DNA of 64,000 nucleotides from a virus, in the IMG/VR virus record IMGVR_UViG_3300049740_002873, positions 9,337-73,336 of that record; one strand, given 5' to 3'. Position 1 is the first letter of the stretch. Every line of letters starts with the position of its first letter. Shown here piece by piece: positions 43,406 to 62,819 of this stretch. A model generated the notes under the pieces. The model did not search any database. It was given only the letters and a program-made list of their open reading frames with translations, and was not told the DNA's origin. The position numbers were made by a program, and so were the translations under genes.

Positions 43406-44546
43406 TGTATAACATAAAGCTCTCTGATTCTTCCCAGAAATCGGGCGAATCTATCATTGTGTCTTGATCGATTAAGTTTTGCTTCCACGCTGCTTTACTT
43501 CTATATATTTTGTTATTTGATACTAATATTTGAGAGCTTTTGTATTTCGTATTATTGCATATTTTTTCGTGGTTGTCAATATCTTTTTTACTTCTAGGGG
43601 TAATTAGAAAAACTTCCCAGTCAAAAAAGTTGATTCTTAATTTACTTAGGTTTTCAGAATCTTTAGTGATTAGTTTTAATGGTATACCTAGATTTGATAT
43701 TTCGCTAAAATAATTTTCATCATCATCTAAACTAACATAAAAATTTATTTGATTAATATTATGTTTTACTAGCTCTAGTAATTTTATATTGATTTGTTTA
43801 TTTAAAAATAGATTTACTTTTCTTTCGTTTGCTATTTTAATAATATTTGTTTCATCGAAATATTCATGCCCCATAATGTTTCCAGGTTTATTGTCAAACT
43901 GTTTTCCGTCAATTACTGTATCTGGTATAATGCATAAAGATGTTGAACTATAATTTCTTCCAGTATAAATTGTGGAAATTTTTTCAAGATCATTTTTTAT
44001 TTCGAGTAAATCTAGAATAGATTTAGCAATCTTTTCGGGTTTTATTTTGTTTATATTATCGATATATTCTGACACAAGAAGATTTGGCTTGAAGTTTTCT
44101 TGTTCTGTATTTAGACAAATTTGATTATCAGGAGAACCCCAGAAGGGTTTTACATAGTTACTATGCATGCTTCCATGAATAGAAACTATTTTTTTGTCTT
44201 CGCTAGAAGCCACATTAAGCAAGAAGGATTCTGGGCCGAAGAATAAACTACAACCTTCAATCAAGTAGGCTTGTTGCCTTAGCGATGCGTCGCTAATTTG
44301 ATCGCAACCTTCTATAGTCCAATCCGGTGAATCGCCGAGTAATAAAACTTTTATATTCTCCTTTTTTAGGTAAGGATTAATAAAATCTATTACATCTTGA
44401 TAGTAATGATAAAACTTAAATTTGTCTCCATGGCAGGCATGTAGTACAATATATTTTTCACTACAATACGGATAGTAGTTTTTTTCTATATGAGGTGAAT
44501 CTATTTTCACTCCACATGTTAAAGCGTACTGTTCTATTTTGTGCAT
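43398..44546 (-). CDS. Glycosyltransferase family 9-like (C-terminal domain) plus extension
   Basis: YIVLH..K.Y....V, SLRQQAYLIEGCSLFFGPESFLLNVAS..KKIVSIHG, INKIKPEKI. Confidence 0.75.
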   Translation of the reverse strand: MHKIEQYALTCGVKIDSPHIEKNYYPYCSEKYIVLHACHGDKFKFYHYYQDVIDFINPYLKKENIKVLLLGDSPDWTIEGCDQISDASLRQQAYLIEGCSLFFGPESFLLNVASSEDKKIVSIHGSMHSNYVKPFWGSPDNQICLNTEQENFKPNLLVSEYIDNINKIKPEKIAKSILDLLEIKNDLEKISTIYTGRNYSSTSLCIIPDTVIDGKQFDNKPGNIMGHEYFDETNIIKIANERKVNLFLNKQINIKLLELVKHNINQINFYVSLDDDENYFSEISNLGIPLKLITKDSENLSKLRINFFDWEVFLITPRSKKDIDNHEKICNNTKYKSSQILVSNNKIYRSKAAWKQNLIDQDTMIDSPDFWEESESFMLYNE

Positions 44547-46441
44547 AGATCGAATTGAATTTTATCTTTATTGTTTCTTGTTAAGAAATTATTTAAAGTA
44601 TTTAATATGCAGGGTTGAAAAACCATCTCAAAATAACCGTCATGCTCTCCATAACCTTCCATTAATGGGAGATCGTTCATTGATTCGTGGAATGGTATAC
44701 ATTTGTGCACATATGGATTTCCATCTAGTATTTCGAAAAATTTAGTTTTTGTTGCTACATAGATATTGTGATCTGGATAGAGCTCGTTTAAGTTTTTAAA
44801 TAAAGATGTAACAAGAAATACATCTTCTTCTGATGTGGGGACGTTTATTAGTATCCTTTTTCCTTTGTCGTCCGACAATAAGTCTTCAAGGTTTACTTTT
44901 TTGTTTTCACTATTTTCTTTTGATGCAACCTTCTTGAAGTACCTTAATACATCATCTCTTTTTAAGTCTGTTTTTAGTCTTTTTATCCAGTGATTATAAC
45001 CTTCGTCATATTGGTCTACTCTTTTTTTTAGTATATGTTTATATATATCTATTATGAATTCACTGTCAGTAAGATTTTCTGGAGGGTTGTATTCGGGATT
45101 TCTTTCTTCTGATGTAAAATCAAAGTCCCATTCACAGTGTGGCATGTTGTCAATTATTTCTTCAAGCTTTTCACCTACAACCTTTATACTGTAATTTTTC
45201 AAAACAAAGTCTCTAGATTTTTTCCCTATTTCCTTTCGCTTGGATTGTTGCATATTGAATACTTTATTTAATTGATTTGATATGCTATTCGGGTCTGTGC
45301 TGGCTTTAATAAATTGAGTTCCTTGCTCTCTATACTCTGTCCATTTTAAGGGTAAGCTACCACTACCTTCTACGCAAGAATCTTCGCCGCAACTATAGTT
45401 GGTTACTAATGTTATTAGTTCCGCAAGTTTGGCTTCTTGTATTGGAATTTCTTGACCTCCGCTTGTGAATGGGTGGCAATATACGTCCATAAGATTGTAG
45501 ATTTCATTAAGCTGTTGCTCTGAGGCCCCTACGCTTGTGTTTGGTGTTATTTGCGAACTTTTAGAGCCGCAAAAACTACAATCTACGTCTTCGGATTTAA
45601 AAGGTTTGATTTCATAGGATTTGCAATTTTTGCATATATGTGTTGTTAATACTGTATTGGGGTCTATAGAGTGTTCACTCATTAGTCTTTTAATGTCCCA
45701 CCCTTCAGTCCAGTTTGTGTGAAATAAAAGTTTTGCTTTTGAGTTTGGGTTTTGTCTTAAAAATTTATTGAATCCCTGTAATAAATTGGGAACGCTTTTT
45801 CTAAGTTGATTTCTGAAGACGAAGCCTATTATAAATTCGTCATCTCGCAAGCCTTGTTTTTTTCTTAATTCACTTCTTTCCTTATCGCTTAAACGAAAAA
45901 AATGTTTCGTATCAATAGCTCCCCTTAGTGTTTTTACATGATCGTACCCCATCTTGTTTAATGACTTTTGCGCAAAAGAAGCCCACGTATAATAGTTTTT
46001 GATATTAGGGGCAGACCTTACTGCTTCAGGTAATATAGGTAAGCTATCTAAAGTAGTCCATATCATAGAGTTAACTTTATTCCACCATATTTTATCTGTA
46101 TATCCACTAAACGCCCATATATCTTCTATGCCAATATACACATCCGGTTTTTCTGCCTCTATTACTTTATCAATCATCTCCGATCCGTAATGAGCGCTCC
46201 GTGCCATAGACGGATCTTTGCTTAGTGTTTCTATTAATTTCGGGTCATTGGGTAATGACCCTATACATTTCCAGGGCAGTTGTTTTAAGCTAGGGTCTGC
46301 CCATTTTTTACCATTAGAAAATTCTACTATTTCATATTTACCTGTTTTATGTAAATGTATTAAAATATTTTTAGCGTTTTTACCGAAGCCAGTTAAGGCT
46401 TTACAGTGATTGCTGTGGATTAATACTTTCTTTTTTTGCAT
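44534..46441 (-). CDS. Glycosyltransferase family 4 with Zn-ribbon, DUF4214-like region and GT9 N-terminal domain
   Basis: TGFGK, RNQLRK, YNLMDVYCHPFTSGGQEIPIQEA; CKNC..CSFC; EFIIDIYKHILKK; DVFLVTSLFKNLNELYP..GNPYV. Confidence 0.85.
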   Translation of the reverse strand: MQKKKVLIHSNHCKALTGFGKNAKNILIHLHKTGKYEIVEFSNGKKWADPSLKQLPWKCIGSLPNDPKLIETLSKDPSMARSAHYGSEMIDKVIEAEKPDVYIGIEDIWAFSGYTDKIWWNKVNSMIWTTLDSLPILPEAVRSAPNIKNYYTWASFAQKSLNKMGYDHVKTLRGAIDTKHFFRLSDKERSELRKKQGLRDDEFIIGFVFRNQLRKSVPNLLQGFNKFLRQNPNSKAKLLFHTNWTEGWDIKRLMSEHSIDPNTVLTTHICKNCKSYEIKPFKSEDVDCSFCGSKSSQITPNTSVGASEQQLNEIYNLMDVYCHPFTSGGQEIPIQEAKLAELITLVTNYSCGEDSCVEGSGSLPLKWTEYREQGTQFIKASTDPNSISNQLNKVFNMQQSKRKEIGKKSRDFVLKNYSIKVVGEKLEEIIDNMPHCEWDFDFTSEERNPEYNPPENLTDSEFIIDIYKHILKKRVDQYDEGYNHWIKRLKTDLKRDDVLRYFKKVASKENSENKKVNLEDLLSDDKGKRILINVPTSEEDVFLVTSLFKNLNELYPDHNIYVATKTKFFEILDGNPYVHKCIPFHESMNDLPLMEGYGEHDGYFEMVFQPCILNTLNNFLTRNNKDKIQFDLCTK

Positions 46442-48941: not shown

Positions 48942-49319
48942 ATGAATAAATACATAGCATTAGGAAATCTCACGAGAGACCCATCAATAAAAAATACCAA
49001 GAATGACAAAAGCGTATGCAATTTTAGCCTCGCAGTTAACAATATTAATGATGTAACATATATCGAAATAGAAACATGGGGTAAAATCGCCGAAAACTGC
49101 AACAACTATTTATCAAAAGGAAGCAAAGTTTTGATCGAAGGAAGACTTTCTTTAAATCAATGGGAATCTAAAACTGGAGAAAAAAGAAGTAAAATTTTCT
49201 GCATAGCCGATAGAGTTCATTTTCTTAAAAGTACAGAAAACGAAACTAACCATAAACAACAACAACAACAAGAAGACAGCCAAGAATCCACTGATGAATT
49301 TTCGGACGTACCTTTTTAA
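48942..49319 (+). CDS. ssb: Single-stranded DNA-binding protein
   Basis: MNK...GNLTRDP, WGKIAENC..YLSKGSKVLIEGRL, acidic tail DVPF. Confidence 0.95.
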   Translation: MNKYIALGNLTRDPSIKNTKNDKSVCNFSLAVNNINDVTYIEIETWGKIAENCNNYLSKGSKVLIEGRLSLNQWESKTGEKRSKIFCIADRVHFLKSTENETNHKQQQQQEDSQESTDEFSDVPF

Positions 49320-50374
49320 TGAAAGATATAATAGTAAACTGCCCAATAAATTCACTATCAATAGGTAATGTTTCATTAAACTTACTTAAAGAAATTTATG
49401 ATTCTAAAATAGATTGCTCTATCATAGAAATGGGAAAAACAGACATATCATCCTTTGATGATTTAACGGATGATTTTATAGACTGGCTTAACTCCAGCAT
49501 TAAAAATGCCAATAAAAAAATAAACAAAGACTCAACTACATTAAAAATATGGCACTTAAACGGCTCTCATGCAAGAGTTTCTAAAAATCAAATACTATAT
49601 ACTTTTTATGAGCTAGATCAACCAACTGACTCTGAAATTAATCTTGTAAAATTTCAAGACAAGACTATTTTTAGCTCTTCTCACGCAAGTAAACTTTTCC
49701 CCGGCTCTTACTATGCGCCATTAGGTTTTGATAAATCATTCTTTAACACAGATAGAGAATATTTAAAAGGAAAAATACATTTTGGATTAATGGGTAAGTT
49801 CGAGAAAAGGAAGCATACTAAATTAATTATACAGAACTGGATTAAAAAATTCGGGAACAATAAAGATTACCAACTGTCATGCTGTATAACTAATCCATTC
49901 TTCAAGAATGAAGATATGGAAGCTATAATTGCAGACACATTAAATGGAAAAAAATATTTTAATATTAATTTCCTACCATGGCTTCCTAAAAATTCTCAAT
50001 TCAATGATTTCATAAACTCAATTGATATAGACTTAACAGGAGCAAGCGGTGCTGAAGGCTGGAACCTACCGGCATTTAATGCAACTTGCTTGGGAAAATG
50101 GAGCATAGTGCTTGATTCAACATCTCACAAGGATTGGGCAAATGAAGAAAATTGTATATTAATAAAACCAAACAGGCAAATACCTGCAGTTGATAACATC
50201 TTTTTTACAGAAAACTCTGAATTCAATCAAGGCGATATAAATACTTTTGACGATGATGAATTCATATATGCAATGGAAAAAGCTATAGAAAAATATAATA
50301 TAGTTAATACTAATGGAAAAAAACTGCAAGAAAAATTTACTTATAAAAATACATTAGAAAAAATATTAGAATAA
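49319..50374 (+). CDS. Glycosyltransferase (GT-B, family 4-like)
   Basis: GKFEKRKH, SGAEGWNLPAFNATCLGK. Confidence 0.8.
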   Translation: MKDIIVNCPINSLSIGNVSLNLLKEIYDSKIDCSIIEMGKTDISSFDDLTDDFIDWLNSSIKNANKKINKDSTTLKIWHLNGSHARVSKNQILYTFYELDQPTDSEINLVKFQDKTIFSSSHASKLFPGSYYAPLGFDKSFFNTDREYLKGKIHFGLMGKFEKRKHTKLIIQNWIKKFGNNKDYQLSCCITNPFFKNEDMEAIIADTLNGKKYFNINFLPWLPKNSQFNDFINSIDIDLTGASGAEGWNLPAFNATCLGKWSIVLDSTSHKDWANEENCILIKPNRQIPAVDNIFFTENSEFNQGDINTFDDDEFIYAMEKAIEKYNIVNTNGKKLQEKFTYKNTLEKILE

Positions 50375-51637: not shown

Positions 51638-52042
51638 ATGGAATTTTCAAGAATAAGAGAGCCCATTAAAAAGACTGGTCCAAACCAATTTATAATTGGT
51701 GATTCTCCAGTAAATAGTCAACTTTCATTAACAGACGGAAAACTCCAAGTGGAAGCAGTGGACGCCTCTTCTTTGTTGGAAATTAGTGGAATAAATTTTG
51801 TAGAGTACTTAACTGGAGACTTAACTTTCTTAAGGAATTTAGATAACAACTTAGTAAAATCTAGATATGAACTCAAGGAAGCTTTTGAAGTTAACGAAGA
51901 CAATGAAATAGTTCCATCTAACGCAGAGTCTATTTCGGATACAATGTGGATTTTAAGAAACGAAACAGACTTAGAACTAAGAAATAATATTTGGCGTTAC
52001 AATACTGGGCCCGAAGCCTTCACAGACGATATATCATTTTAA
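51638..52042 (+). CDS. Hypothetical protein
   Basis: ORF track; tight spacing with neighbours. Confidence 0.7.
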   Translation: MEFSRIREPIKKTGPNQFIIGDSPVNSQLSLTDGKLQVEAVDASSLLEISGINFVEYLTGDLTFLRNLDNNLVKSRYELKEAFEVNEDNEIVPSNAESISDTMWILRNETDLELRNNIWRYNTGPEAFTDDISF

Positions 52043-52044
52043 TT

Positions 52045-54633
52045 ATGGCGACAAGAAATTTAGTACCAAGAAATAGCGGAGAAGGGGGTGTAGGAAGAAT
52101 ACCCAAAGCGTGGGCTAGTGGAGTATTTGATAATCTTTACATAAGAGGGTTTGAGTTCACCATGGATCAACCTCTAACCACTCAAGATAATGTAACATTT
52201 AATAGTGGAGACTTTCCTAGTGGATTAACTGTTAGCGGAATGACAATCCCAGAAATACATGACATGTTAGATAAAAGATCTGGAAGCATGGCAGACTTTT
52301 GTTTTTTTTCTGACGCCTATTCAAATCATGGAGTTACAAATAAATCTTACTACGATACAATCCACGAAAACCATTTTATTTCAGGAATTAGCGTAAGTTC
52401 TGCGGATGATTTACGGCTCCACTTCAGGTGGGATGGACCAAAAGATCAATATATGGGCAAAGCCTTAATCAATAACATAGAAATACCCAAAGAAAATATT
52501 ATAGAACTAGGGGATAAAACAAGAAGATTTGAAGGTTATCTAGACAACTTAAACCTAACAGGAAAAACGTCAATCACTGGAATAGCTAATGGACAAATTT
52601 CTGTAATTTCCTTACTAGAAGTTGGTGCAGGTCCATCCGCAACAGATATAGTAATATCTGAAATTTCAGAAGCTTCCGCCAAACCAGGTCAACTTTTAGG
52701 AGAGACTCACTTAAAACAAGGAGATAGAATAAATGTAGATGTATTTTTTGACAGAGAAGATATAGCCTCTATTAAAGTATTAGATTACGGATTAGCTGAA
52801 GAAATTGATTTTCAAAGTTATACAATCTCCAGCGAATCAGATTTCTATAAAGCAACTATCCCTGTGACTATATCAGACAGATCGGGAACTCAAGGAATAA
52901 AAGTTCAAGCAGTTGATGATTTTGGTACAACTGGGGTAGTTGTGTCTTCAGAAGATTTCGCTCATGAAAATACCACAAGAGAACTCGATCAATTATATCC
53001 TTTAATAAACACTTCAGATCCAACATCCTACAATGGAAGAAGTGACGGACTAAGAGAAGGAGAGTCTGCAACCTTTGATAATTCTATATCTAATTGGGAT
53101 GAGCTTTCAGACGAAATTGAATATGAAGCACTAAGCTCTTTCATACAAATAGAAAACCCAAACATTTTTGAAGAAACTAAATCAGTAAATTATGTAGATG
53201 GAATATTTAGCGATGTAGATAATATAGAAATTTATGCAATAAGAAAAAATAACGGCGCAACAGACAGGAATAAAGTTAATGTTAAAATAGCAAATGGACC
53301 AGTAATACTATCAACGCAACTTGACTCTCTAGCTTCTGAATCTGAATCTCCCCACATAATAGGAAACTCTCAAGTTAAGGCTGGTGATACGGTTTTATCT
53401 AGGATAGAAATTAACACAAATGGTGTTGAAGCAAATGATATAAGTATATCAATACCCAACGAAGGAGTTGCGGATGGCTCGCAATCTTTTTTCTCATCTA
53501 GCTACCAAAGCAATGAATTACCTAATGGCAATTTTGAATTTACAATTCCAATCAAAGTTTATGGAGCATTAGGTTTTAACAATAGAGACGGAGATCAGCC
53601 ATCTAGCTTTATAGCAAGAAATAATTTTGGAACACAAAGCGATAAAGTAACTTCAACAGACACAGCTGAAGTGCATAATGAAACTATTCCAGAAATATCC
53701 ATAAATAGCATCTCATACCCTCAAGGACAAGAAGCAATTAAATCTCCAGAGCAGGCATCCATCAACAACACGGTAATTAATTTTGATCAAATACTTTATT
53801 CCTCTCCAAACAATCAAATATCAATAGATAATAATACTACATTAGAAGAAAATAAAACTGTTACATATTTAAATGGAGATTATAATGTAGAAAATGATTC
53901 TGGGATAAATAATTTTAAAATATCCGCAACAAGAAACGCCAATGGAGCAACATCAGAATCTTCTAAGGTTGTAAACATTGCAAACCTTCCAATCATTATA
54001 TCAATAGATGGAATATCTCTACCAATCAAAACATCATCAACTCCCTCTACTACAAACGAATTTACATTATCAACAAATCAATTGATGCTAAACATTCCAA
54101 GCTTAAACACAAGCAATGATCAGCAAGAACAATCTATACTAAATAGCATTGCCTCTGGAACAGGAAAAACAAGCAATAGATATTCCTTGACTGTTAGCGA
54201 TCAAGATACAAAAGGATCTTTCCCATGGATAGTTTCCGTAAAAAATTTATCCAACATAGAAAGTAAAGTAATTTCTCAAAACCCCAACTATATACTAGAA
54301 GGTTTTAATGAAAGAACTATATTCTCAGACCCAAATAGCATAGGTGCAGGATTAGCAGACATCGGAACATCCGTATCCAATCCATTAAATTTAAATTTTG
54401 AAAATATTTCAGAAGGAGGAACCGGGCCAAACGGGGGAACAATATATTCATACGAGTCATTTGATGAAGGAACCGTTTTCAATAACTCATTTGATATAAA
54501 CAATAAGTTTTCAATTTGCGATGAAAACGGAAACTTTAATCCTCAAGGAAATTTCGTATTTAATCTAGATAAATTAAACAGATCAGCAAATACATCTACT
54601 ATAAATCCAGCATCTTTTACTGTATCAGAATAA
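52045..54633 (+). CDS. Large beta-rich (Ig-like) virion protein
   Basis: Start moved to MATRNLVPR; S/T/N-rich; internal duplication (ESATFDNSISNWD..I.Y / EQASINNTVINFD.I.Y). Confidence 0.6.
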   Translation: MATRNLVPRNSGEGGVGRIPKAWASGVFDNLYIRGFEFTMDQPLTTQDNVTFNSGDFPSGLTVSGMTIPEIHDMLDKRSGSMADFCFFSDAYSNHGVTNKSYYDTIHENHFISGISVSSADDLRLHFRWDGPKDQYMGKALINNIEIPKENIIELGDKTRRFEGYLDNLNLTGKTSITGIANGQISVISLLEVGAGPSATDIVISEISEASAKPGQLLGETHLKQGDRINVDVFFDREDIASIKVLDYGLAEEIDFQSYTISSESDFYKATIPVTISDRSGTQGIKVQAVDDFGTTGVVVSSEDFAHENTTRELDQLYPLINTSDPTSYNGRSDGLREGESATFDNSISNWDELSDEIEYEALSSFIQIENPNIFEETKSVNYVDGIFSDVDNIEIYAIRKNNGATDRNKVNVKIANGPVILSTQLDSLASESESPHIIGNSQVKAGDTVLSRIEINTNGVEANDISISIPNEGVADGSQSFFSSSYQSNELPNGNFEFTIPIKVYGALGFNNRDGDQPSSFIARNNFGTQSDKVTSTDTAEVHNETIPEISINSISYPQGQEAIKSPEQASINNTVINFDQILYSSPNNQISIDNNTTLEENKTVTYLNGDYNVENDSGINNFKISATRNANGATSESSKVVNIANLPIIISIDGISLPIKTSSTPSTTNEFTLSTNQLMLNIPSLNTSNDQQEQSILNSIASGTGKTSNRYSLTVSDQDTKGSFPWIVSVKNLSNIESKVISQNPNYILEGFNERTIFSDPNSIGAGLADIGTSVSNPLNLNFENISEGGTGPNGGTIYSYESFDEGTVFNNSFDINNKFSICDENGNFNPQGNFVFNLDKLNRSANTSTINPASFTVSE

Positions 54634-54635
54634 TA

Positions 54636-55595
54636 TTAAATTCCCATTCTTGTTATAGAAAAATATGTTGGACTCGTTAGTTCTGCCAGGCTTCCTGGTC
54701 CCGCAACTAAGTTTCTTGAAAATTTAAATTCAATATAATCATTGTCATAAAAGTAAACGGGTAAGCTCATACTTGCAAACCTTTTTGAAGCATCTGCAGT
54801 ATTACCTCTTAATCTAATTGCACTGAAATGATTTTCATTAGTTATATAACCAGGAATAGGTGGACTTCCTGTAGACAAATCTTCATCTTCATAACCCGAA
54901 TAACCAAATTTCGTTCCATTTTTAAACATCTCAACCTGAACCCACGTATCCGAAGAGTTTCCATATAATCTAGCACTTATGTTAAAATTAACTAAATACA
55001 TACCCTCATGAACCACAGTAAACCTACTCATTCCAGATTGATTAGTTCCTACAGAAGCGCTAGTCCCATCAATATATTCACTAGCTGAAACTGAACTTGA
55101 TGCTGAAGTATTATTAAAAGGAATAAGAGTATTCAACATATAGCTTTGAGAGCTTTGATAAGATCCAACCGCTGGAAAAATAAACTCATCAGGGTTTGTC
55201 GACCCCGCAGGATAATCTCCCATAACGCTTGCAGTATAAGGATACTCTTGAGTTTTGTTTGATTTAATCTTGTAAGAACCTGAATCGATATATATATCGC
55301 CGATACTATTAGTAATATATAGCTGAGAATTTGCAGTTGATGCGTACCCTATATAACCTAATTGCGTGTCAGACGAATTTTTAAAATTCATATAACCGGC
55401 AACCGAGTTATTGACAGAGTTGTTATTGTCCTTTAGGGTTATTACAGGAACTGAGTTCTGAATAGTTATATCTCCATTATTAACAGTTAGATTGCCGTTA
55501 AGCACTCCTGTATCACTAAGTGGTCCAGACGAAGCAGAGCTAAGCTCGGCTACCTTCTGCCCTACCTTGTACAATATGGATGATGTATCTGCCAC
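54636..55595 (-). CDS. Distal fibre/receptor-binding protein with C1q/TNF-like head
   Basis: IPFN...RFTVVHEGMYLVNF...MFKNG...YFYDNDYIEF...FSITRM; GTG start. Confidence 0.6.
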   Translation of the reverse strand: MADTSSILYKVGQKVAELSSASSGPLSDTGVLNGNLTVNNGDITIQNSVPVITLKDNNNSVNNSVAGYMNFKNSSDTQLGYIGYASTANSQLYITNSIGDIYIDSGSYKIKSNKTQEYPYTASVMGDYPAGSTNPDEFIFPAVGSYQSSQSYMLNTLIPFNNTSASSSVSASEYIDGTSASVGTNQSGMSRFTVVHEGMYLVNFNISARLYGNSSDTWVQVEMFKNGTKFGYSGYEDEDLSTGSPPIPGYITNENHFSAIRLRGNTADASKRFASMSLPVYFYDNDYIEFKFSRNLVAGPGSLAELTSPTYFSITRMGI

Positions 55596-55617
55596 TTAAA
55601 TATAATAACTTTTAAAA

Positions 55618-58350
55618 TCAAGCATTCAAGCCAGACATAAAATCCTCAAAATTACCAAGGTTATCAAATCCTGGCTGATCGGACACTTCCCCAGATGCAA
55701 CGTCTGCTGCTGAAGCGGTTGCGTCAGAAGTCCTTTCGACTTCTAATCCCTTAACTTTCATTTTTAAGTGACCCAAAACTGGAAGCCCTGCATTGTCTTC
55801 CTCATATGTTGCCTCGAAGAATCCTAGATCAGTGCCATAACTAGCAGCAGTACTGTCTCCACTATTATATACAAATCGAGCCTTTCTGTCATTACCACCG
55901 TTTGCTATGACTTCTCCAGCTTCTATTTCAATACCAGAAGATCCTCCTACACCACCAGCTTCAAAATTTCCACCTCCATTAAGATTCAGTTTGATAATAC
56001 TATCTTCAACATCTAAATTGGTTGTATTTACTGTAGTTGCTGTTCCATTGACTGTAAGATTTCCGCCGACTGTAAGATTGTTAGTAACATTCAAATCACA
56101 CTCTCCGCCTGCAGCACCTGCATCTCCAATAGAAACAGTTCCGCCAAAAGCAACAATCTGAACCGTGGCCCCAACCCCAGCCTGTGTTGATTCTTCAGCA
56201 CTGATTGATGCTAGTGAACTTGCCATATCTTGAGATTTTAATGATAGGAATGGTGTTGCAACGAATTGATCTACTTCAATACCATTACTATAATCAGCGC
56301 CAGCTATAGTTGCCGTTTCGAACTGATTTGTATTAGCGTTCCACTGCAATACCTCTCCACCAGTTAAATTCGCATTATTATAACCACCTACATCACTTAA
56401 ATCGTTCAAGTTTTTATTCCACAAAAAACTAGATGTAGCTCGCCATTTACCTGAATGCGCGTTCCAAATTAAAGCGGCTCCATCTTGAGAAGGAATGCCA
56501 CCTGATAAGAAAGTTTCATCAAGATCTGATAAAGAAGAAAGAGTGTGGTTATGCTCTCTAGTAGCGTATACATTTTGATATTCATAAACCCTAAACAAAC
56601 CATCTGTTGCGCCACCTGACGCAATAGTAGAGCTCATTGCGGTGGTAATAAAAGAACCATCGCTAGCAATTAAAACACTTTTAAATTTATTGGAAGAAGC
56701 GTCGGCATCTGGTATATTTGCCACAATAGTACCAGAATCCCAACTGTTGGTTGTTGAGTTATGTACAAAACGCTTTATTTGATGGCCAGTAAAATCAAAC
56801 TCGGACAACGAAGAAAATGCACTATAAGCAACAACTATAGTAGTTCCATCTTCCGAAGAATCAATACTATAAGCATTACTACTACCAACCGTAGACGTAA
56901 AAGGAGCACCCTTGCCGACCCAAGCGGGCGAAGCCTCATGATATTCAAAAGAATAAACTTTACCCTCGTTCGCTGTAACCATCGAAAGAGTAGTAACATC
57001 TCCACCGGTTACATTATTTAATACAGGAGTAGCAAAAAAATCATTAACAGGTAAATCGGTAATTTCAATCAATTGATAATTCGTCGCTCCATCATCCGCA
57101 AGATAATCGTCCCAGTAACTAAATGCATTAGAAAATATAGCTAAACTAAATTTACGCTCATAAGGACTTTCTCCTGCAGCTAGGTTCGCTGATACAGCAC
57201 TATAATTTGCATCACTATCATCTATAACTATAACTGCACCAGCAGTTGTTGTGTTACCCGGAGCCCCAACTGCAAGCATCTCACCATCTCCACGGTAAGA
57301 CAATGAGCTACCAAATGCTCCTTGAGGAGTTGATCCCACGTAATCTCTAATTTCAGTAAAGCTTGGAGTAGCTACGCTCTCTAATTTATAAACAAAAACT
57401 CTTCCCGAGTTCGAGCCGTCTGCGTTAGAATCGAAACAACCTAACGCAACCTTTTCTCCGTTGTCAGTTATAGATATACTATGAGCTTGCTCAGTAAAAC
57501 TACTGGTAGTTATAAATCCCAAGTCAGTAGCTGTTACGGTATTATCGGTCTCATCTCCGACTAATGAAATATAATGAGCTTTAGCTAATTGACCACTGGA
57601 TCCATCATAAGATAGCACATTATACAATATCAACCCGCCATCACTTCCCGCTGGCGCAATACCATTGATTGTGAATTCGTCAAAAGTCAAAGCAGATAAT
57701 TTAGCAATAGCAATAGGTAATGCAGCGCTAGCAGCACCCAAATCTACAGAAAATCTATCGCTCAATGTTCCATCGGTATTACGCTTAAAAATATCAACTT
57801 TACCAACTGTTTCAGAACCATTATCATCAGTATAACTAATCGCAACAAATTGATTATCTGCGGTCATTGCAGTATAATATTGACTACCCGCCCACGCCGG
57901 AGCTGATGGCGTTAAACCATTCGCTGCTGCACTCGCAGTAACACTATATTCAGTTAAATCAGAATCATCAAGATATTCGCTATGAACATGATCTGTAGAA
58001 GCAAAATCTAAAGTTTCCGCCACCCAAGCGGAACTCGAATCATTCCACTGTAACACCTGCCCATCAATTGTAGCACCTATATTCACATCATCTAATTGAT
58101 ACAAACTATGACTATGACCTATAGATGCATAGTCAGTATCGTGATCATGATTTAGCAATGCAAAATTGGATGTGTCAATAGATCCAGTTACAACCGGAAC
58201 CCCTGATACTGATAAACTTCCGAAATTACCAGATCCCGTAAGATCTATACTTTGATCACCTGAAAAAGGAACATAATCGTCAAGCTGACTATTCATTGTA
58301 GACTTAACTGACTGCCCTATACGATAGAATATTGAATTTGTGTCTGTCAT
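55618..58350 (-). CDS. Tail fibre protein with propeller (FG-GAP-like) region
   Basis: HxH motifs, L.DV..DGQVLQWN repeats, FGSSLS..LAVGAPG, GNLTVNGTATTVNTTNLDVED. Confidence 0.7.
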   Translation of the reverse strand: MTDTNSIFYRIGQSVKSTMNSQLDDYVPFSGDQSIDLTGSGNFGSLSVSGVPVVTGSIDTSNFALLNHDHDTDYASIGHSHSLYQLDDVNIGATIDGQVLQWNDSSSAWVAETLDFASTDHVHSEYLDDSDLTEYSVTASAAANGLTPSAPAWAGSQYYTAMTADNQFVAISYTDDNGSETVGKVDIFKRNTDGTLSDRFSVDLGAASAALPIAIAKLSALTFDEFTINGIAPAGSDGGLILYNVLSYDGSSGQLAKAHYISLVGDETDNTVTATDLGFITTSSFTEQAHSISITDNGEKVALGCFDSNADGSNSGRVFVYKLESVATPSFTEIRDYVGSTPQGAFGSSLSYRGDGEMLAVGAPGNTTTAGAVIVIDDSDANYSAVSANLAAGESPYERKFSLAIFSNAFSYWDDYLADDGATNYQLIEITDLPVNDFFATPVLNNVTGGDVTTLSMVTANEGKVYSFEYHEASPAWVGKGAPFTSTVGSSNAYSIDSSEDGTTIVVAYSAFSSLSEFDFTGHQIKRFVHNSTTNSWDSGTIVANIPDADASSNKFKSVLIASDGSFITTAMSSTIASGGATDGLFRVYEYQNVYATREHNHTLSSLSDLDETFLSGGIPSQDGAALIWNAHSGKWRATSSFLWNKNLNDLSDVGGYNNANLTGGEVLQWNANTNQFETATIAGADYSNGIEVDQFVATPFLSLKSQDMASSLASISAEESTQAGVGATVQIVAFGGTVSIGDAGAAGGECDLNVTNNLTVGGNLTVNGTATTVNTTNLDVEDSIIKLNLNGGGNFEAGGVGGSSGIEIEAGEVIANGGNDRKARFVYNSGDSTAASYGTDLGFFEATYEEDNAGLPVLGHLKMKVKGLEVERTSDATASAADVASGEVSDQPGFDNLGNFEDFMSGLNA

Positions 58351-58385
58351 TTTATTTATTAGTTGATTGTATTTTTTAAAAATTT

Positions 58386-61300
58386 CTAATCCGTGAATCC
58401 CGCCAAGAAGTCTGAATAACCTCCAACGCTTTCATATGATTCAGTTACATTGTCTTTCAAGAAAAGAGAACCATCTATTTTTACATTTCCAGCAACATCA
58501 ATTTTCTCTGTAGGATTTTCTTTTCCGAAACCTACATTTCCATTCAATATAGAAATATTTTCTCCATCAGGCTGCCAAGCCGAACCGATCAAAACCTTGC
58601 CTCCCATGCCAGAATGAGACGCGCAATAATAGTATAAAGTTGGGGTATCTTGTTCGACAATTATTTGAGTATAAGCGTCAGCACTGCCCAATGCACCCAC
58701 CACACTTACTCCTTCGGCGTATTCTATTCCATCTACATCAGTACTAAACCTCAAAGGATGACTAATATTACTAGAGTCGCTTTGATTAAATCTGTAAGTG
58801 GTTCCTCTTGTCAAAACAACAGTTAACTGCGGTTGCCCATCAATATAAAACACGCCCCCCGCAGCAGTAACAATAATTTCTTGAAACAATTCCTCAGAAA
58901 TTTCCGGGGTTGGAGTCCATGCCCCACCAACATACTTTAGTATGTCACCATCTCCCGGGTTCGCTGTAGCACTAATTTGTCCAAAATAATCCGACTTAGA
59001 CGCCCAATTCACAGAAGAAGTTAAACCGTCAAGAGTTAAATAAATTCCATCGTGATTATGATTAACGCTAGAATACAAATCATCATGATCGTGGCCTATT
59101 TGAGAATAGACTCCATCATGATTATGACCTATTGAAGCAAAATCTCCAGCGTCACCAACACCTGTCATCACAGGATTGCCGCTTACATATAATCCATCCG
59201 AAAAGTTACCGCTGCCGACTACATCCAACTCATACTCTGCCGCAGTATTTTTATTAATTGATATTTTATCAGATTTATACCAAGAAGTTAATGTATCTCC
59301 CGCTAGACAAGAAAAAACATCATCAGAAAAATAAACTAGTTCTAGCAAATCAATAGAAAAGTCATTGTATATATCGATACTCCTAATAACAGATAAATTT
59401 GTTGTTCCAATACTATAAACATTTAGAGTATGATTATTCGTATTGCTGATTCCGTCTAAATGATAAAATTCTGTAAGATCTAAATTAGCGGTATAACTAT
59501 TACTTGCTTGATCTAATTCTAGACCATAATCTGAAATATTTATTTCATCTAAAGATCCGCTAGCACTATCCTCATTAATTTTAAAAAAGTGAATAAATTG
59601 CTGTCCTTGTGTTATAGTTCCACTTTCTATAAATAATGTATTAGAAGAATCAGATACATGTACGCCAAATTGACCAAACTTAACATCATTATAGCTATCT
59701 CCATTAAGAGTAGAGCTAAACTGACTCACAGCGCCCAAGTCATCTATTTTAAATAGAGAAAGCAAACCATATCTTTTAGAAAAACTTCCAGCAAAATCAG
59801 GGCAGAATACAACTAAAAATTTCTTGTTTTCGGATATCTTTGCCGAGCATTGTCTGTTTAAGCTGTTTTCTGGAATAGTTATATAAAAATCTTCAACTGC
59901 ATGAGTTCTACCCATTCCAGAATGAGCAGTGCAATAAGAATATAGAGTAGCAGGAGAATCAGGGCTTAAGTTTACAGATAAAGTATTACCGCTCCTAGTT
60001 ACTCCGCTTGTGTATTCAGTTCCTCCGCCATGTGTTCCATTATTTGTTGTTGAAAAAGCTAATGGATGAGAAGATGGATAATCAAATTGATAATTATAAC
60101 CCTCAACCATCTCAAAAGTAGTAGCGCCGTCAAACAAAAACAGTCCATCACTCACAGTTACATTTACATTTATATACCCACCAAAATCATAATTCACAAA
60201 CATCCATTGATCTTCAGTATACCTGTAAATTTTAGTTTTATTTACCTGCGATACAGTAACATAAGAACCGTCATTAGAAATACTACATCTTATTTTAATA
60301 GGATTAGATTCTGATGATAAATCGAGTACATTTTCAGAAACCCAACCCGACGCGCTTGACCCATCAAAAGAGTATTTTTTTATTAAACCATTTTCATTCA
60401 ATAAAACATATTCTCCATTATCACTAATAGATATTGGCTCTTCAAGCAAACTATCATCAAAATCAGCTGTATAACTTATATCTTGACCCAATTTAGACCA
60501 AGATTCATTTTCAAATTTATAAACTCTTATTTTTTGATCATCTTCTGTATAAGATAAAATTACTTTACTATTTAAGCTTTTAATTATCTTTGGCTCAGAG
60601 CTAAATGGACCACTGCCTATTCCCTCCAATGTAAAACCATTACTATTTTTTCTATAATTATTTGCGCCATCAAAATTTACTTTATCATATTGGTTATCAA
60701 ATATATGATATAGATTATTTAATTCTGATGACTGTAAATACTTATCATCATGAGCGTGCTCGATAGGCGCATAATTACTATCGTGATTATGATTTATACC
60801 TGCGTAATCATCATGATTATGTTCCTGAAAAGCATAAACGCCATTATGATCATGATTTACTAATGCAAAATTATTCACAAAGCCTTCCGTTCCAGTTAAA
60901 ACAGGAACCCCAGAAACAAACAGTCCATCATTAAAATTACCGCTACCAGCCAAATCGACACTATTGCCGTTCACTAAAGAAACGTAAAGTCCGTCATGAT
61001 TATGATCAACAGATGCTGCTTGAGTTAATACAGGGCTTCCATCGACAAAAAGACCGCCACCAAAATTACCACTTCCAGCCAAATGAATACTATTCTGGTT
61101 TAAAATAGGCACAAATTCCCCAGCCCCAGTCATTACAGGTTCACCATCAACATATAAACCACTTTCAAAGTTACCACTACCGCGAACATTAAAATCAAAC
61201 TCGGAAATTGATGAATTTACTCCAACTTTACCTATATAAAATATACCACCTTCAGCCGTAGAAGTCCAAGACCCCTGCCCTTGATTAATATTTGTTACAA

Positions 61301-62819
61301 TTAAATCAATTTCATCCTCAGTATAATATCTATCATCATGGTTATGTTCGCCAACCGCAACACTCTGAACAATTGAATCAACTTGACTTTTTTGATAATA
61401 CAAATCGTTATGAGCGTGACCCGTAGGAGAATACAAATCATCGTGCCTGTGATCTTGTAGAGAAAATCCATCCAAACTAGACAATCCTGTTAAAACAGGA
61501 ACCCCAGAAACAAATAAGCCGCTTGCGAAATTACCTGAAGAATTTACATTTATACTGCTATCAGAAGAAAGTATATTATTACTTAAGGACCAATATGTTT
61601 GTGCATCTATTTCAGCTCTACTATAATATCTATCGTCATGCAGATGCCCCGTGTTTGATTTTTCATCTAAAAATAATTGCACTTCCCCAGCCGTATAGTA
61701 ATTCCCCAAAGATTCTATGCCCGTAAGTACAGGATTCCCTTCTACATATAACGTATCAAAATTACCGCTTCCAGAAACATCTAAATCAAATTGAGGAGAA
61801 TCATTATTAATGCCAACCTTACCTTGATTATAGTATATATCATTAGCTCCATCATCACTCCATTTACCCGCGACCAATCCATCTATACCAGTTAATACTG
61901 GATTTCCATCAACAAAAAGACCTTGATCAAAATTACCCGAACCAACTACTTGTAAATTATCATATACCCTCCATTCATTGTCGTCAGCTATATAATAAAT
62001 ACTTTTTGGATCTCCATTGTAATTTAGAGATATTCCGCCATTTGAATTTTCTAAATCTTGATCTAAGTAATTTAAAATTATTGAGCTACCTGAAACCTGA
62101 AGAGAATTTACATCAAACACGCCACTTTCTCCAACAACCCTAAAATCACCCTCTATAGTTGTGTCGCCTGATACGTAAAGTTTTTGGTCAATGCTTTCCG
62201 CTCCAATACCCACATTACCCTGATTGTAATATATATTTGAATTATTCTTCTCCCAATATACATATTCATCTCTCGTCCCAGTTAAAACTGGAGAACCCTG
62301 GACGTAAAGCGTTTCAGAGAAATTACCACTACCAGAAACATCTAATTCGTAATTCGGAGAATCATTTAAAACACCAACTTTAGCCTGCGAAGATAAAAAC
62401 AGGGAAGAACTATTATTCGATGAAATTTCAATATCTCCATCAGACTGTACATTGGAAATATGCAGAGCATTTTCCCCAGGAATTTTAAGTCCATCACTAA
62501 CAACCCAGGAAGAATCTGTTTCTGACCACAACAAACTATGCCCTCCTAATCTTAAGCCTCCTCCATCTACAGATGACTGACCGTAACCTAAGTTAATTGA
62601 ATTACTTAAAAAATTTACATTACTATAATTAAACTCTGCATTTACTCCTGAGGAACTTAAATCTCCAACCAAATTAAAATCCCCAATAACATCCAATGTG
62701 TGACTTGGGTCGTTTTTCCCAATTCCAAAATTATTTCCGCTTACAGAAAGTAATGGCGACTCAACCTCAATGTACGAATCTTCACCTTTTTTGGTTAAAT
62801 ATAATTGATTAATGACCAT
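58386..62819 (-). CDS. Long tail fibre protein with GSGNF and HxH repeats and two cupredoxin-like domains
   Basis: VGI...P...LDV repeats, 8 x (G/S)SGNF..LxVxGxPV(L/M)T, about 12 x HxH(D/N), 2 x HPL.FS...YC..HSGMG. Confidence 0.75.
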   Translation of the reverse strand: MVINQLYLTKKGEDSYIEVESPLLSVSGNNFGIGKNDPSHTLDVIGDFNLVGDLSSSGVNAEFNYSNVNFLSNSINLGYGQSSVDGGGLRLGGHSLLWSETDSSWVVSDGLKIPGENALHISNVQSDGDIEISSNNSSSLFLSSQAKVGVLNDSPNYELDVSGSGNFSETLYVQGSPVLTGTRDEYVYWEKNNSNIYYNQGNVGIGAESIDQKLYVSGDTTIEGDFRVVGESGVFDVNSLQVSGSSIILNYLDQDLENSNGGISLNYNGDPKSIYYIADDNEWRVYDNLQVVGSGNFDQGLFVDGNPVLTGIDGLVAGKWSDDGANDIYYNQGKVGINNDSPQFDLDVSGSGNFDTLYVEGNPVLTGIESLGNYYTAGEVQLFLDEKSNTGHLHDDRYYSRAEIDAQTYWSLSNNILSSDSSINVNSSGNFASGLFVSGVPVLTGLSSLDGFSLQDHRHDDLYSPTGHAHNDLYYQKSQVDSIVQSVAVGEHNHDDRYYTEDEIDLIVTNINQGQGSWTSTAEGGIFYIGKVGVNSSISEFDFNVRGSGNFESGLYVDGEPVMTGAGEFVPILNQNSIHLAGSGNFGGGLFVDGSPVLTQAASVDHNHDGLYVSLVNGNSVDLAGSGNFNDGLFVSGVPVLTGTEGFVNNFALVNHDHNGVYAFQEHNHDDYAGINHNHDSNYAPIEHAHDDKYLQSSELNNLYHIFDNQYDKVNFDGANNYRKNSNGFTLEGIGSGPFSSEPKIIKSLNSKVILSYTEDDQKIRVYKFENESWSKLGQDISYTADFDDSLLEEPISISDNGEYVLLNENGLIKKYSFDGSSASGWVSENVLDLSSESNPIKIRCSISNDGSYVTVSQVNKTKIYRYTEDQWMFVNYDFGGYINVNVTVSDGLFLFDGATTFEMVEGYNYQFDYPSSHPLAFSTTNNGTHGGGTEYTSGVTRSGNTLSVNLSPDSPATLYSYCTAHSGMGRTHAVEDFYITIPENSLNRQCSAKISENKKFLVVFCPDFAGSFSKRYGLLSLFKIDDLGAVSQFSSTLNGDSYNDVKFGQFGVHVSDSSNTLFIESGTITQGQQFIHFFKINEDSASGSLDEINISDYGLELDQASNSYTANLDLTEFYHLDGISNTNNHTLNVYSIGTTNLSVIRSIDIYNDFSIDLLELVYFSDDVFSCLAGDTLTSWYKSDKISINKNTAAEYELDVVGSGNFSDGLYVSGNPVMTGVGDAGDFASIGHNHDGVYSQIGHDHDDLYSSVNHNHDGIYLTLDGLTSSVNWASKSDYFGQISATANPGDGDILKYVGGAWTPTPEISEELFQEIIVTAAGGVFYIDGQPQLTVVLTRGTTYRFNQSDSSNISHPLRFSTDVDGIEYAEGVSVVGALGSADAYTQIIVEQDTPTLYYYCASHSGMGGKVLIGSAWQPDGENISILNGNVGFGKENPTEKIDVAGNVKIDGSLFLKDNVTESYESVGGYSDFLAGFTD

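Follow-up and report, generated by a model that had tools for sequence, protein, structure and literature searches.

In the long tail fibre of phage T4, trimeric gp36 is described as binding gp37 at its N-terminal region; the C-terminus of the last protein forms the receptor-binding tip (PMC3004832). For RBP2 of phage KP32, a 29-residue N-terminal peptide is reported to be necessary for mounting the second fibre or spike on the first one, and the same peptide can carry foreign bodies (PMC13352976). The lateral fibre of the T5-like siphovirus DT57C is described as containing two fibre proteins, LtfA and LtfB, the latter being attached via the former; LtfA itself docks through its N-terminal strands, by beta-strand augmentation, before a trimeric coiled coil begins (PMC10713586). 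The C1q RBPs of marine pelagiphage-like podoviruses are portrayed as short tips whose N-terminal end is well conserved and whose C1q head is hypervariable, and which are encoded beside a tail-fibre gene (PMC3909814). Tail fibres of uncultured marine phages decide which hosts are infected, and the assembly of fibres encoded by several genes is not readable from sequence. A portable N-terminal attachment head occurring on fibre tips is Mtd_N (PF18454), named after Mtd of Bordetella phage BPP-1.

The window, i.e. the whole stretch of DNA analysed here (64,000 nucleotides), is part of a 73,336-bp viral record with 278 ORFs of at least 40 aa, and it was this record that we searched for motifs. The phage is uncultured and marine, its tail module is siphovirus-like, and the record represents about half of a roughly 150-kb genome. 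An earlier note on this DNA had drawn attention to three neighbouring minus-strand genes, here called A, B and C, and to their terminal peptides; the ORF list and re-translated sub-ranges gave the same three genes, with coordinates, extents and terminal peptides that matched the sequence exactly. Two short motifs mark the ends of their products. The C-motif, [LV]Gx[YFL]xDFx[AS]G[LFY]xx followed by the stop, is contained in the final 13-16 residues of both A and B, and the N-motif, MxDTxS[IV][FL]Yx[IVM]GQxV, in the initial 20-25 residues of both B and C. The features of the locus are as follows.

58386..62819, minus strand: gene A, a candidate root fibre protein of 1477 aa, N-motif absent and C-motif at the end (ORF; PHROG tail-fibre matches)
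58389..58427, minus strand: C-motif of A (VGGYSDFLAGFTD), last 13 residues (translation; 12.4 bits; identical in 5/5 A relatives)
55618..58350, minus strand: gene B, a putative middle segment of 910 aa with N-motif and C-motif (enlarged member of the adaptor family)
58285..58350, minus strand: N-motif module of B, residues 1-22 (translation; 43.9 bits)
55915..56097, minus strand: adaptor-type central domain of B, residues 752-812 (hhalign against adaptor alignment A3)
55621..55668, minus strand: C-motif module of B (FDNLGNFEDFMSGLNA), last 16 residues (translation; 26.0 bits)
54636..55595, minus strand: gene C, a putative distal segment of 319 aa with N-motif, short shaft and C-terminal head (ORF)
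55524..55595, minus strand: N-motif core of C, residues 1-24 (37.4 bits; boundary of the P0011 mosaic after residue 24)
55281..55595, minus strand: conserved N-terminal domain of C, 105 residues, enclosing the N-motif core (homologous to a 607-aa podovirus protein)
54639..55040, minus strand: C-terminal head of C, presumed receptor binder (highly conserved within the C family)

In translation, A terminates in VGGYSDFLAGFTD, B opens with MTDTNSIFYRIGQSVK and closes with NLGNFEDFMSGLNA, and C, which has a GTG start, opens with (M/V)ADTSSILYKVGQKVA. A and B are separated by 35 nt, and B and C by 22 nt. A read-through fusion of A, B and C was considered and rejected, as a further in-frame stop lies between the stop of A and the start of B. 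Pfam at E<=0.01 gave no domain of any kind in A or B and none in C, NCBIfam gave no match for any of the three, and their PHROG matches are generic tail-fibre or unknown families only. It needs to be mentioned that some public gene calls (P0012 and P0018) start B at Met19, by which the N-motif is lost. The longer start is probably the correct one, given that the remaining 6 relatives, as well as distant phages, conserve residues 1-22 at the peptide level.

Compared with the T4 long tail fibre (gp34-gp35-gp36-gp37), the A-B-C locus is alike in that successive segments would come from adjacent genes, their joining being what we infer here. It differs in that neither Pfam nor NCBIfam reveals any homology between A, B or C and the T4 proteins, that neither a monomeric knee protein nor a gp38-type chaperone was seen, and that one motif pair recurs at two successive putative joints, as well as in podovirus-like and T7-like contigs. 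The anchor-branch RBPs of KP32, K11 and KP34, all podophages of Klebsiella, resemble B and C in having a conserved N-terminal module, which is an analogy of design and not homology. In KP32 the socket is an internal T4gp10-like domain and the result is a branch, whereas here the candidate socket is a C-terminal tail of 13-16 residues and the result would be a linear chain; Pfam finds no branching domain in A or B, and, to the extent that they were compared, the peptides are unrelated in sequence. The LtfA/LtfB/LtfC system of DT57C is likewise branched rather than linear and shows no sequence similarity (tblastn of B and C against GenBank phages), yet its strand docking, in the form in which it is described in PMC10713586, offers by analogy a plausible mechanical model for the N-motif. 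The C1q head of the pelagiphage-like RBPs is shared by a 607-aa N-motif protein of locus L015, whereas the head of C falls below any C1q threshold; the passages of PMC3909814 that deal with these RBPs mention no partner C-terminal motif. The Mtd_N domain is absent from A, B and C according to Pfam, but is present in small T7-like proteins ending in the C-motif (53.7 and 48.2 bits). The likeness of the motif pair to the docking domains of modular polyketide synthases is one of analogy only. The motif pair is new and the principle of the joint is already known from T4 and Klebsiella phages; the gain would be a new, widespread type of joint and not a new kind of biology.

Both motifs are statistically real, discrete, conserved and terminal modules of fibre proteins. 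Among the 278 ORFs of the record, the strict N-motif expression matched B and C only and the strict C-motif expression matched A and B only, which bears out the exclusivity that had been claimed for the window; its ends are also balanced, with 2 C-motifs and 2 N-motifs. An N-motif matrix trained on 26 N-termini from outside the window was used to score 2,573 ORFs (1,617 distinct N-termini), and gave 43.9 bits to B and 37.4 bits to C, the next window ORF scoring 3.0. With a C-motif matrix trained on 29 non-window C-termini, the scores were 26.0 bits for B, 12.4 bits for A and -12.4 for the next in rank among 127 ORFs of the window record. Across all loci, 13 of 1,592 distinct C-termini reached at least 10 bits on this matrix, and all 13 are family members; as only family members reach this score, the C-motif of A is real but divergent. 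The positions are fixed: the N-motif begins at residue 2-5, and 2-3 residues separate the end of the C-motif from the stop. When the adaptor-family rules were applied to the window, B and C carried an N-motif starting at residue 2-5 and A carried none, and both A and B had 3 residues past the final G of a C-motif, which C lacks. Altogether 27 distinct N-motif variants were found, that of C included.

The ends of the orthologues are more conserved than their bodies. In the B family, column identity is 0.99 over residues 1-30 and 0.94 over residues 31-60, with a mean of 0.73; relatives of B that are 63-78% identical overall are invariant at residues 1-22, and the C-motif is conserved right beside a hypervariable stretch (0.45 identity over residues 871-900). 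Five close relatives make up the A family, all with the same N- and C-termini, the tail being kept in 5/5. In the C family the N-motif is kept in 10 of 11 members, the gene call of the remaining one starting further downstream. The tails of A and B differ from each other, as do the heads of B and C, and each is fixed within its own family, which fits pair-specific joints. A natural mosaic (P0011) keeps the N-module and the head of C with the shaft exchanged, the break falling after residue 24, and this agrees with the earlier suggestion that whole segments can be swapped.

Outside the window, the N-motif opens and the C-motif closes fibre proteins in uncultured marine podovirus-like and T7-like contigs, and both motifs are members of larger, unnamed families. 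The adaptor family (alignment A3) comprises proteins of roughly 190-570 aa with both ends present. Its central domain, with the signature NLTVxGTTT...DNxIxLNKGA, has 11,832 relatives at E<=1e-3, and residues 752-812 of B align to A3 with an hhalign probability of 96.9% (E 1.3e-10; this domain test was made for B). Among the best 150 relatives of the central domain, 72 are of at most 600 aa and 78 are longer. The shorter ones have a terminal N-motif in 47/72, a C-motif within 12 aa of the end in 44/72 and both in 40/72; among the longer ones, many of which match the domain in several stretches, an N-motif, whether terminal or internal, is present in 0/78 and a terminal C-motif in 1/78. Two proteins with the N-motif only were scanned against Pfam and gave a C1q domain (26.5 bits) and a SASA esterase (37 bits), so that the idea of tip-like domains on such proteins found support. 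There are exceptions to the terminal position: the C-motif is internal and followed by a fused domain without an N-motif in three proteins (P0032, P0066 and P0131), and the N-motif is internal in one 670-aa protein.

Other searches returned less. Eight viral stretches matched the first N-motif DNA pattern, and a looser, ATG-anchored one brought no further viral locus; L002, L004, L007 and L009 were dropped as chance N-motif DNA matches (nearby stops or no family features), and a 73-aa ORF in L034 that matched a loose C-motif expression was judged spurious. Scanning viral contigs with B and C as single proteins yielded no relative, and a scan of prokaryote genomes yielded 13 pattern matches with 0 confirmed relatives. 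In GenBank phages, tblastn found nothing for B, C, a podovirus adaptor or the 62-aa T7-like protein, nor, at E<=10, for residues 1-25 of B. With the adaptor alignment as profile, the PDB yielded matches at chance level only (E about 0.8).

The head of C had been taken for C1q-like, and this part of the earlier note found no support. PF00386 was absent from all 11 members of the C family even at E<=5, and a PDB sequence search with the head gave no match. The 607-aa N-motif protein of L015 does have a Pfam C1q head (26.5 bits against a threshold of 23.7), but hhalign aligned C with this podovirus protein over residues 1-105 only (its N-terminal 98 residues), and the two heads share one weak BLAST stretch (E 0.035 over 42 aa). 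With no C1q match in the family, an alignment limited to the N-terminal part and no PDB match, the assignment of C as a C1q protein was rejected.

The bodies between the motifs are modular, and the motifs recur at gene junctions. A C-motif gene lies directly upstream of an N-motif gene in three unrelated protein contexts: in the window (A to B and B to C), in podovirus-like contigs (a first adaptor to a second one, 6 rows), and in T7-like contigs, where the gene for a protein of 78-109 aa, made of an Mtd_N domain and a C-motif tail, precedes one for a protein of 62-64 aa that opens with a variant of the N-motif, in 31/31 loci (this variant scores 23-25 bits, and the background lies at about 10 or below). 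C-motif-only proteins, which belong to two unrelated families, have an N-motif gene next in 32/32 loci. Metagenome loci were fetched with the N-motif as seed and represent mostly few lineages, and these numbers of loci are therefore not numbers of independent events. On the other hand, the gene after the C-motif gene in the main adaptor cluster has an LRxxGG-type N-terminus in 8/17 rows and is of another kind in 3/17. In four small adaptor clusters an N-motif gene comes next in 0 of the 4-5 rows with a downstream gene, these genes being 4 of LRxxGG type and 1 'other', and 2 further rows stop at the contig end. The majority of distinct N-motif genes come after a gene that has no C-motif. Examples of such preceding genes are about eight distinct ORFs ending in ...SKLIP[STG]L[LF] (196-1073 aa, several cut by the contig end), and six N-motif genes follow Mtd_N-type proteins that lack a canonical tail. 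In a complete podovirus genome of 80.6 kb there are 2 N-motifs, 1 C-motif and 1 N-only protein, and in the T7-like loci N-motifs stand to C-motifs as 2-3 to 1. As N-motifs outnumber C-motifs, at least some of them must dock elsewhere. The C-then-N order recurs in unrelated backgrounds, but many C-motif adaptors precede other fibre genes. The rule that the C-motif occurs only where a segment follows and the N-motif only where one precedes is true of the window but breaks down in other contigs, with LRxxGG-type followers and with N-motifs after C-motif-less genes. As for independent occurrence of the motifs in other genomes, which had been named as an argument against their pairing, unpaired N- and C-motifs are common, yet the C-motif-only proteins were paired in all 32 loci.

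The best reading of these comparisons, to which we would give even chances, is that the C-motif and the N-motif are two halves of an end-to-end joint. A, B and C would then be consecutive segments of one multi-protein tail fibre, held together where the C-terminal tails of the proximal fibre grip the N-terminal module of the protein that follows, and the order would be virion-A-B-C with the head of C at the tip. With its C end only, A would be the root; B, with both ends, an adaptor or extension; and C, with its N end only, the tip. The fibres would presumably be trimeric, the contact between the motifs direct and the assembly in this order. Speaking against the joint are the C-motifs that often precede a gene without the N-motif, the many N-motif genes behind C-motif-less ones, the internal motifs (C-motifs with a fused domain, and one N-motif), the surplus of N-motifs and the weak family membership of the tail of A at 12.4 bits. 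An alternative is that the N-motif is a general handle by which B, C and their relatives dock at some other site (such as a domain within A, a different fibre protein or the tail tip), giving parallel branches instead of a chain, and that the C-motif has a separate role as a terminal cap, a trimer clamp of the adaptor domain or a landing site, e.g. for LRxxGG-type fibres. It would account for the N-motif surplus, for N-motif genes usually following C-motif-less genes, and for C-motif adaptors mostly preceding non-N-motif fibre genes and internal C-motifs preceding fused tips. Branched systems also provide precedents, as a conserved N-terminal peptide is described as docking on an internal branching domain and not on a C-terminus (PMC13352976), and LtfB of DT57C as attached via LtfA (PMC10713586). 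Against such branching, the C-only proteins have an N-motif gene next in 32/32 loci, a 78-aa protein made of Mtd_N and the C-motif offers little else as a socket, and Pfam finds no T4gp10-like or other branching domain in A or B. Moreover, the window phage and the podovirus-like and T7-like contigs detectably share only the motifs and the adaptor domain of B, so that a common third-party socket is not evident. Taken together, we regard branching from a common anchor as possible, but somewhat doubtful.

Tandem duplication and recombination could also yield adjacent genes that share ends, and the motifs might then be mainly homology patches for module shuffling, with no contact between N- and C-ends. 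The build of B, whose N-end is like that of C and whose C-end is like that of A, the break of the P0011 mosaic right after the N-module, and the very different bodies headed or closed by the motifs across phages are all compatible with such a footprint. But conservation is seen at the peptide level over very divergent proteins (27 N-motif variants; residues 1-22 of B invariant), at fixed terminal positions, and the motifs are missing from the long relatives, many of them domain-repeating. These features point to selection on protein function at free ends and not only to DNA homology, and we find a mere footprint improbable. A similarly small probability is given to the idea that one or both motifs are read by a chaperone or assembly factor, or removed on maturation, and are not part of the finished joint. 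Many fibres do rely on chaperones or on self-cleaving C-terminal modules, and on a related contig a neighbouring fibre gene encodes a Peptidase_S74 chaperone domain. Nevertheless, in A, B and C Pfam finds neither an S74 nor a chaperone-like domain, the C-motif comprises just about 13 residues, and no conserved small chaperone-like gene accompanies the motifs in the three phage backgrounds.

If the end-to-end joint is true, a pair of end motifs marking partners and their order would allow multi-gene fibres to be reconstructed from metagenomes, and it would explain the exchange of tips such as C1q heads and esterases among very different phages. It would also provide a small joint for structural work, the T7-like pair of 78 and 62 aa being the simplest candidate. 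We consider it rather unlikely that the motifs are a portable joint 'grammar' common to sipho-like, podo-like and T7-like marine phages, consisting of a root with the C-motif, zero or more adaptors with both motifs and a tip with the N-motif. Under such a grammar, the build order of a fibre would be readable from sequence, and both-ended adaptors might add in series to give fibres of variable length.

One further observation concerns the C-motif itself. Of the 8 distinct tails that stand before an N-motif gene, 7 have L, M or I behind DF/EF and the eighth has Q; in the 13 distinct tails before LRxxGG-type genes this position is T, N, E or I. As part of the same, rather unlikely grammar, C-motif subtypes might indicate which partner follows.

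The 73,336-bp IMG/VR virus record, of which the window is the right-hand 64 kb, has an estimated completeness of about 50%. The plus strand of the window carries a siphovirus-like tail module, and the three fibre genes lie on the minus strand at its right end, with spacings of 35 nt (A/B) and 22 nt (B/C):

Plus strand: tape-measure protein of the tail module, 2,562 aa
Plus strand: minor tail proteins of the tail module
Plus strand: J-like central fibre protein of the tail module
Plus strand: fibre-like protein of the tail module, 3,187 aa
58386..62819, minus strand: gene A, 1,477 aa
55618..58350, minus strand: gene B, 910 aa
54636..55595, minus strand: gene C, 319 aa, GTG start

PHROG matches for A are of the tail-fibre type. 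None of the three proteins matched Pfam or NCBIfam, and the ‘C1q-like’ label which an earlier note had attached to the head of C is a putative one; the terminal sequences quoted there for A, B and C agreed exactly with those obtained on reading the genes. Among the 278 ORFs of at least 40 aa in the whole record, the strict N pattern (DTxSIxYxxGQxV type) was found only at the starts of B and C, and the strict C pattern (GxxxDFxxG type) only at the ends of A and B. Matrices were trained on 26 N-termini and 29 C-termini, all from outside the window. On the N matrix the scores were 43.9 bits for B, 37.4 bits for C and 3.0 for the window ORF that came next, and the N-motif family stood well apart from background among 1,617 distinct N-termini. 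On the C matrix they were 26.0 bits for B and 12.4 bits for A, and -12.4 was the highest score of any other ORF among the 127 scored from the record. As a score of at least 10 bits was reached by 13 of 1,592 distinct C-termini across all loci, every one of them a family member, we read the tail of A as a true, if divergent, C-motif.

Close relatives of the three proteins preserve these ends. Relatives of B are 63-78% identical overall, and residues 1-22 are invariant in all six that were called from the long start; column identity in the family is 0.99 over residues 1-30 and 0.94 over residues 31-60, compared with a mean of 0.73, and the last 16 residues are conserved next to a hypervariable stretch (0.45). 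Two public gene calls, P0012 (the window’s own protein) and P0018, place the start of B at Met19, and the conservation of the peptide ahead of this residue argues for the longer start. The Met19 calls leave out the N-motif (window 58297..58350, minus strand), and automatic annotation would thus conceal it. The same tail is present in five of five relatives of A, and the N-motif is kept in 10 of 11 C-family proteins, the remaining one having been called from a later start. One relative, P0011, is a natural mosaic with residues 1-24 and the head as in C and a different shaft. The longest contigs of the A, B and C relatives are in several cases identical in size (13,323; 150,755; 9,917; 12,388; 5,937), which suggests that these relatives occur together.

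When searched for with profiles and degenerate DNA patterns, the motifs also turned up in marine contigs of uncultured origin. Of eight viral stretches with a match to the N pattern, three at ORF starts (L005, L006 and L008) and an internal one (L003) looked real, and four were discarded as chance. All three stretches matching the C pattern were ends of ORFs that start with the N-motif. Such ORFs make up a family of adaptors, about 190-570 aa long, in which the N-motif lies at residue 2-5 and the C-motif ends 2-3 residues before the stop, with an NLTVxGTTT...DNxIxLNKGA domain in the centre. Since the central domain aligns with residues 752-812 of B (hhalign probability 96.9%, E 1.3e-10), B is, judged by its sequence, an enlarged adaptor. 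The domain itself is very common (11,832 proteins at E<=1e-3, 1.84 billion representatives searched). Among the best 150 of these relatives, a terminal N-motif is present in 47 of the 72 proteins of up to 600 aa and a terminal C-motif in 44, with 40 having both; of the 78 longer ones, many with several matched domain stretches, none showed an N-motif and one had a terminal C-motif. The motifs therefore mark free protein ends and not the domain. Tip-type domains were seen in two proteins with the N-motif only: one has a C1q head (26.5 bits), the other a SASA esterase (37 bits). The C1q-headed protein has an N-terminus homologous to residues 1-105 of C.

Gene order was assessed in the window record and in the loci which the viral and metagenome scans had yielded, after removal of redundancy (of 102 confirmed metagenome loci, 80 were kept). 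The counts are biased, as the N-motif was the seed for the metagenome loci and many of these come from one lineage. There were 58 genes ending in the C-motif, including one spurious ORF, and the remainder formed eight clusters. An N-motif gene comes next after both A and B. In T7-like contigs, the next gene after the one for a 78-109-aa C-motif protein encodes a protein of 62-64 aa at 31 of 31 loci. This second protein has a variant of the N-motif that scores 23-25 bits, the background being about 10 or less. The first consists of an Mtd_N domain (Pfam 53.7 and 48.2 bits) and a C-motif tail, which differs between two sublineages. Altogether, proteins with the C-motif only, belonging to two unrelated families, had an N-motif gene next in 32 of 32 loci. 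The main adaptor cluster (n=17) was more varied, the next gene having the N-motif in six cases (adaptor1 to adaptor2), being LRxxGG-type in eight and other in three. In four small adaptor clusters (seven rows) it was LRxxGG-type four times and a similar gene scored as ‘other’ once, and two rows ran into the contig end. Adjacency of the two motifs in phage contigs thus recurs in three unrelated protein contexts, but many C-motif adaptors precede other fibre genes.

The T7-like contigs, which are marine, were assigned by a Phage_T7_tail match and a large terminase sharing 63% identity with the one from an uncultured Mediterranean phage. Their row (L073 5382..6213; L076 7132..7907) has a third gene, for an 85-aa protein with a second N-motif variant, after the two small ones, and represents a minimal set of connector-only proteins. 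Genes after the last adaptor open with another conserved, LRxxGG-type N-terminus (e.g. ...LRANSGGVPLSHNDVDSNF), a candidate further attachment handle. There are several paralogues per contig; collagen repeats occur together with a Peptidase_S74 chaperone domain in one, and another has a head-fibre domain. Examples from three loci are:

L012 8105..10183, minus strand: LRxxGG-type gene after the last adaptor
L015 10267..11922: LRxxGG-type gene after the last adaptor
L023 12069..13022: LRxxGG-type gene after the last adaptor

Viewed from the N-motif side, the gene upstream of a distinct N-motif gene lacks the C-motif in most cases. About eight N-motif genes are preceded by ORFs of 196-1073 aa ending ...SKLIP[STG]L[LF], several of them cut by the contig end, and six by Mtd_N-type proteins. 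In a complete 80.6-kb genome, scanned for all but 597 nt, the N-motif proteins number exactly two, a C1q tip and an adaptor, and the adaptor supplies the one C-motif; the ratio of N-type proteins to C-motifs in T7-like loci is two or three to one. Internal C-motifs exist and are followed by fused domains that lack the N-motif; an internal N-motif occurs in one case. The proposal that a C-motif is always followed by a segment and an N-motif always preceded by one describes the window, where every motif end is paired and which would be the cleanest case of the proposed joint, but elsewhere N-motifs outnumber C-motifs. Two loci with the 393-aa N-motif gene, L076 and L079, come from one 68-kb metagenome contig, which may be a chimera or two related phages joined in a concatenation; in one locus the upstream region is different and residues nearby are masked or ambiguous.

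The best reading, to which we would give about an even chance, is a weaker form of the original one, namely that the two motifs are halves of an end-to-end joint. A (C end only) would be the root, B (both ends) an extension unit and C (N end only) the tip. This joint is favoured because both motifs are strictly terminal and are absent from long relatives, many of which have a repeated domain; because each motif is fixed within its own family yet different between paralogues; because the motifs recur at gene junctions in unrelated backgrounds; and because the tiny Mtd_N/C-motif protein is little beyond two connectors. A pure footprint of duplication or recombination seems improbable to us, and a chaperone or maturation signal equally so. 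The motif pair is not the whole story, however, since N-motifs exceed C-motifs and many C-motif adaptors precede another class of fibre genes. The main rival is a common-anchor or branched arrangement, in which the N-motif would attach at some other site and the C-motif would serve a different purpose; we consider it a serious but distinctly less probable explanation than the end-to-end joint. At the atomic level, such a joint might resemble DT57C LtfA, in which the N-terminal strands that precede a trimeric coiled coil are docked through beta-augmentation (PMC10713586).

That several proteins can be joined N-to-C into one fibre is textbook knowledge for T4, whose gp36 binds gp37 in its N-terminal region (PMC3004832). 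In Klebsiella phage KP32, a 29-residue N-terminal docking peptide proved necessary and binds an internal branching domain (PMC13352976), and in marine pelagiphage-like podoviruses C1q proteins with a conserved N-terminal end are reported to adjoin the fibre gene (PMC3909814). No membership of A, B or C in any of these families was detectable. What appears new, in literature searched by topic rather than by motif, is the motif pair, for which Pfam and NCBIfam have no model and the PDB no relative by sequence; tblastn against GenBank phages gave no match for B, for C, for an adaptor or for an N-variant protein of the T7-like contigs.

Several further features of the region were observed. A pattern resembling the ligands of plastocyanin (HPL.FS ... 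YYC..H..M) occurs in two segments of A (window 58581..58847, minus strand, and around residues 880-960), and the top three PDB matches of A residues 1300-1420 are plastocyanins, at non-significant E values (0.41-0.54). Residues 1200-1477 of A are common to 787 proteins at E<=1e-3, among them some that also have Mtd_N or T7 tail-fibre domains. An 880-aa ORF (51991..54633, plus strand) converges on gene C; its residues 529-869 match a PHROG labelled ‘tail sheath’ (E 2.7e-54) despite the otherwise siphovirus-like tail module, and its listed TTG start is probably too early, an internal ATG (MATRNLVPR...) lying downstream. Two glycosyltransferase-like genes (PHROG 2170; 44534..46441, minus strand, and 49319..50374, plus strand) lie between the tail module and the fibre genes. 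Finally, the adjacent genes 5530..6888 and 3802..5529 (both minus strand), one of which has a weak PHROG tail-fibre match, have a similar N-terminus, N[NK]R[VI]S[SE][FL]DE, and a similar C-terminal Y.VHT stretch, and may form a second family of paralogous fibre-like genes with common ends.
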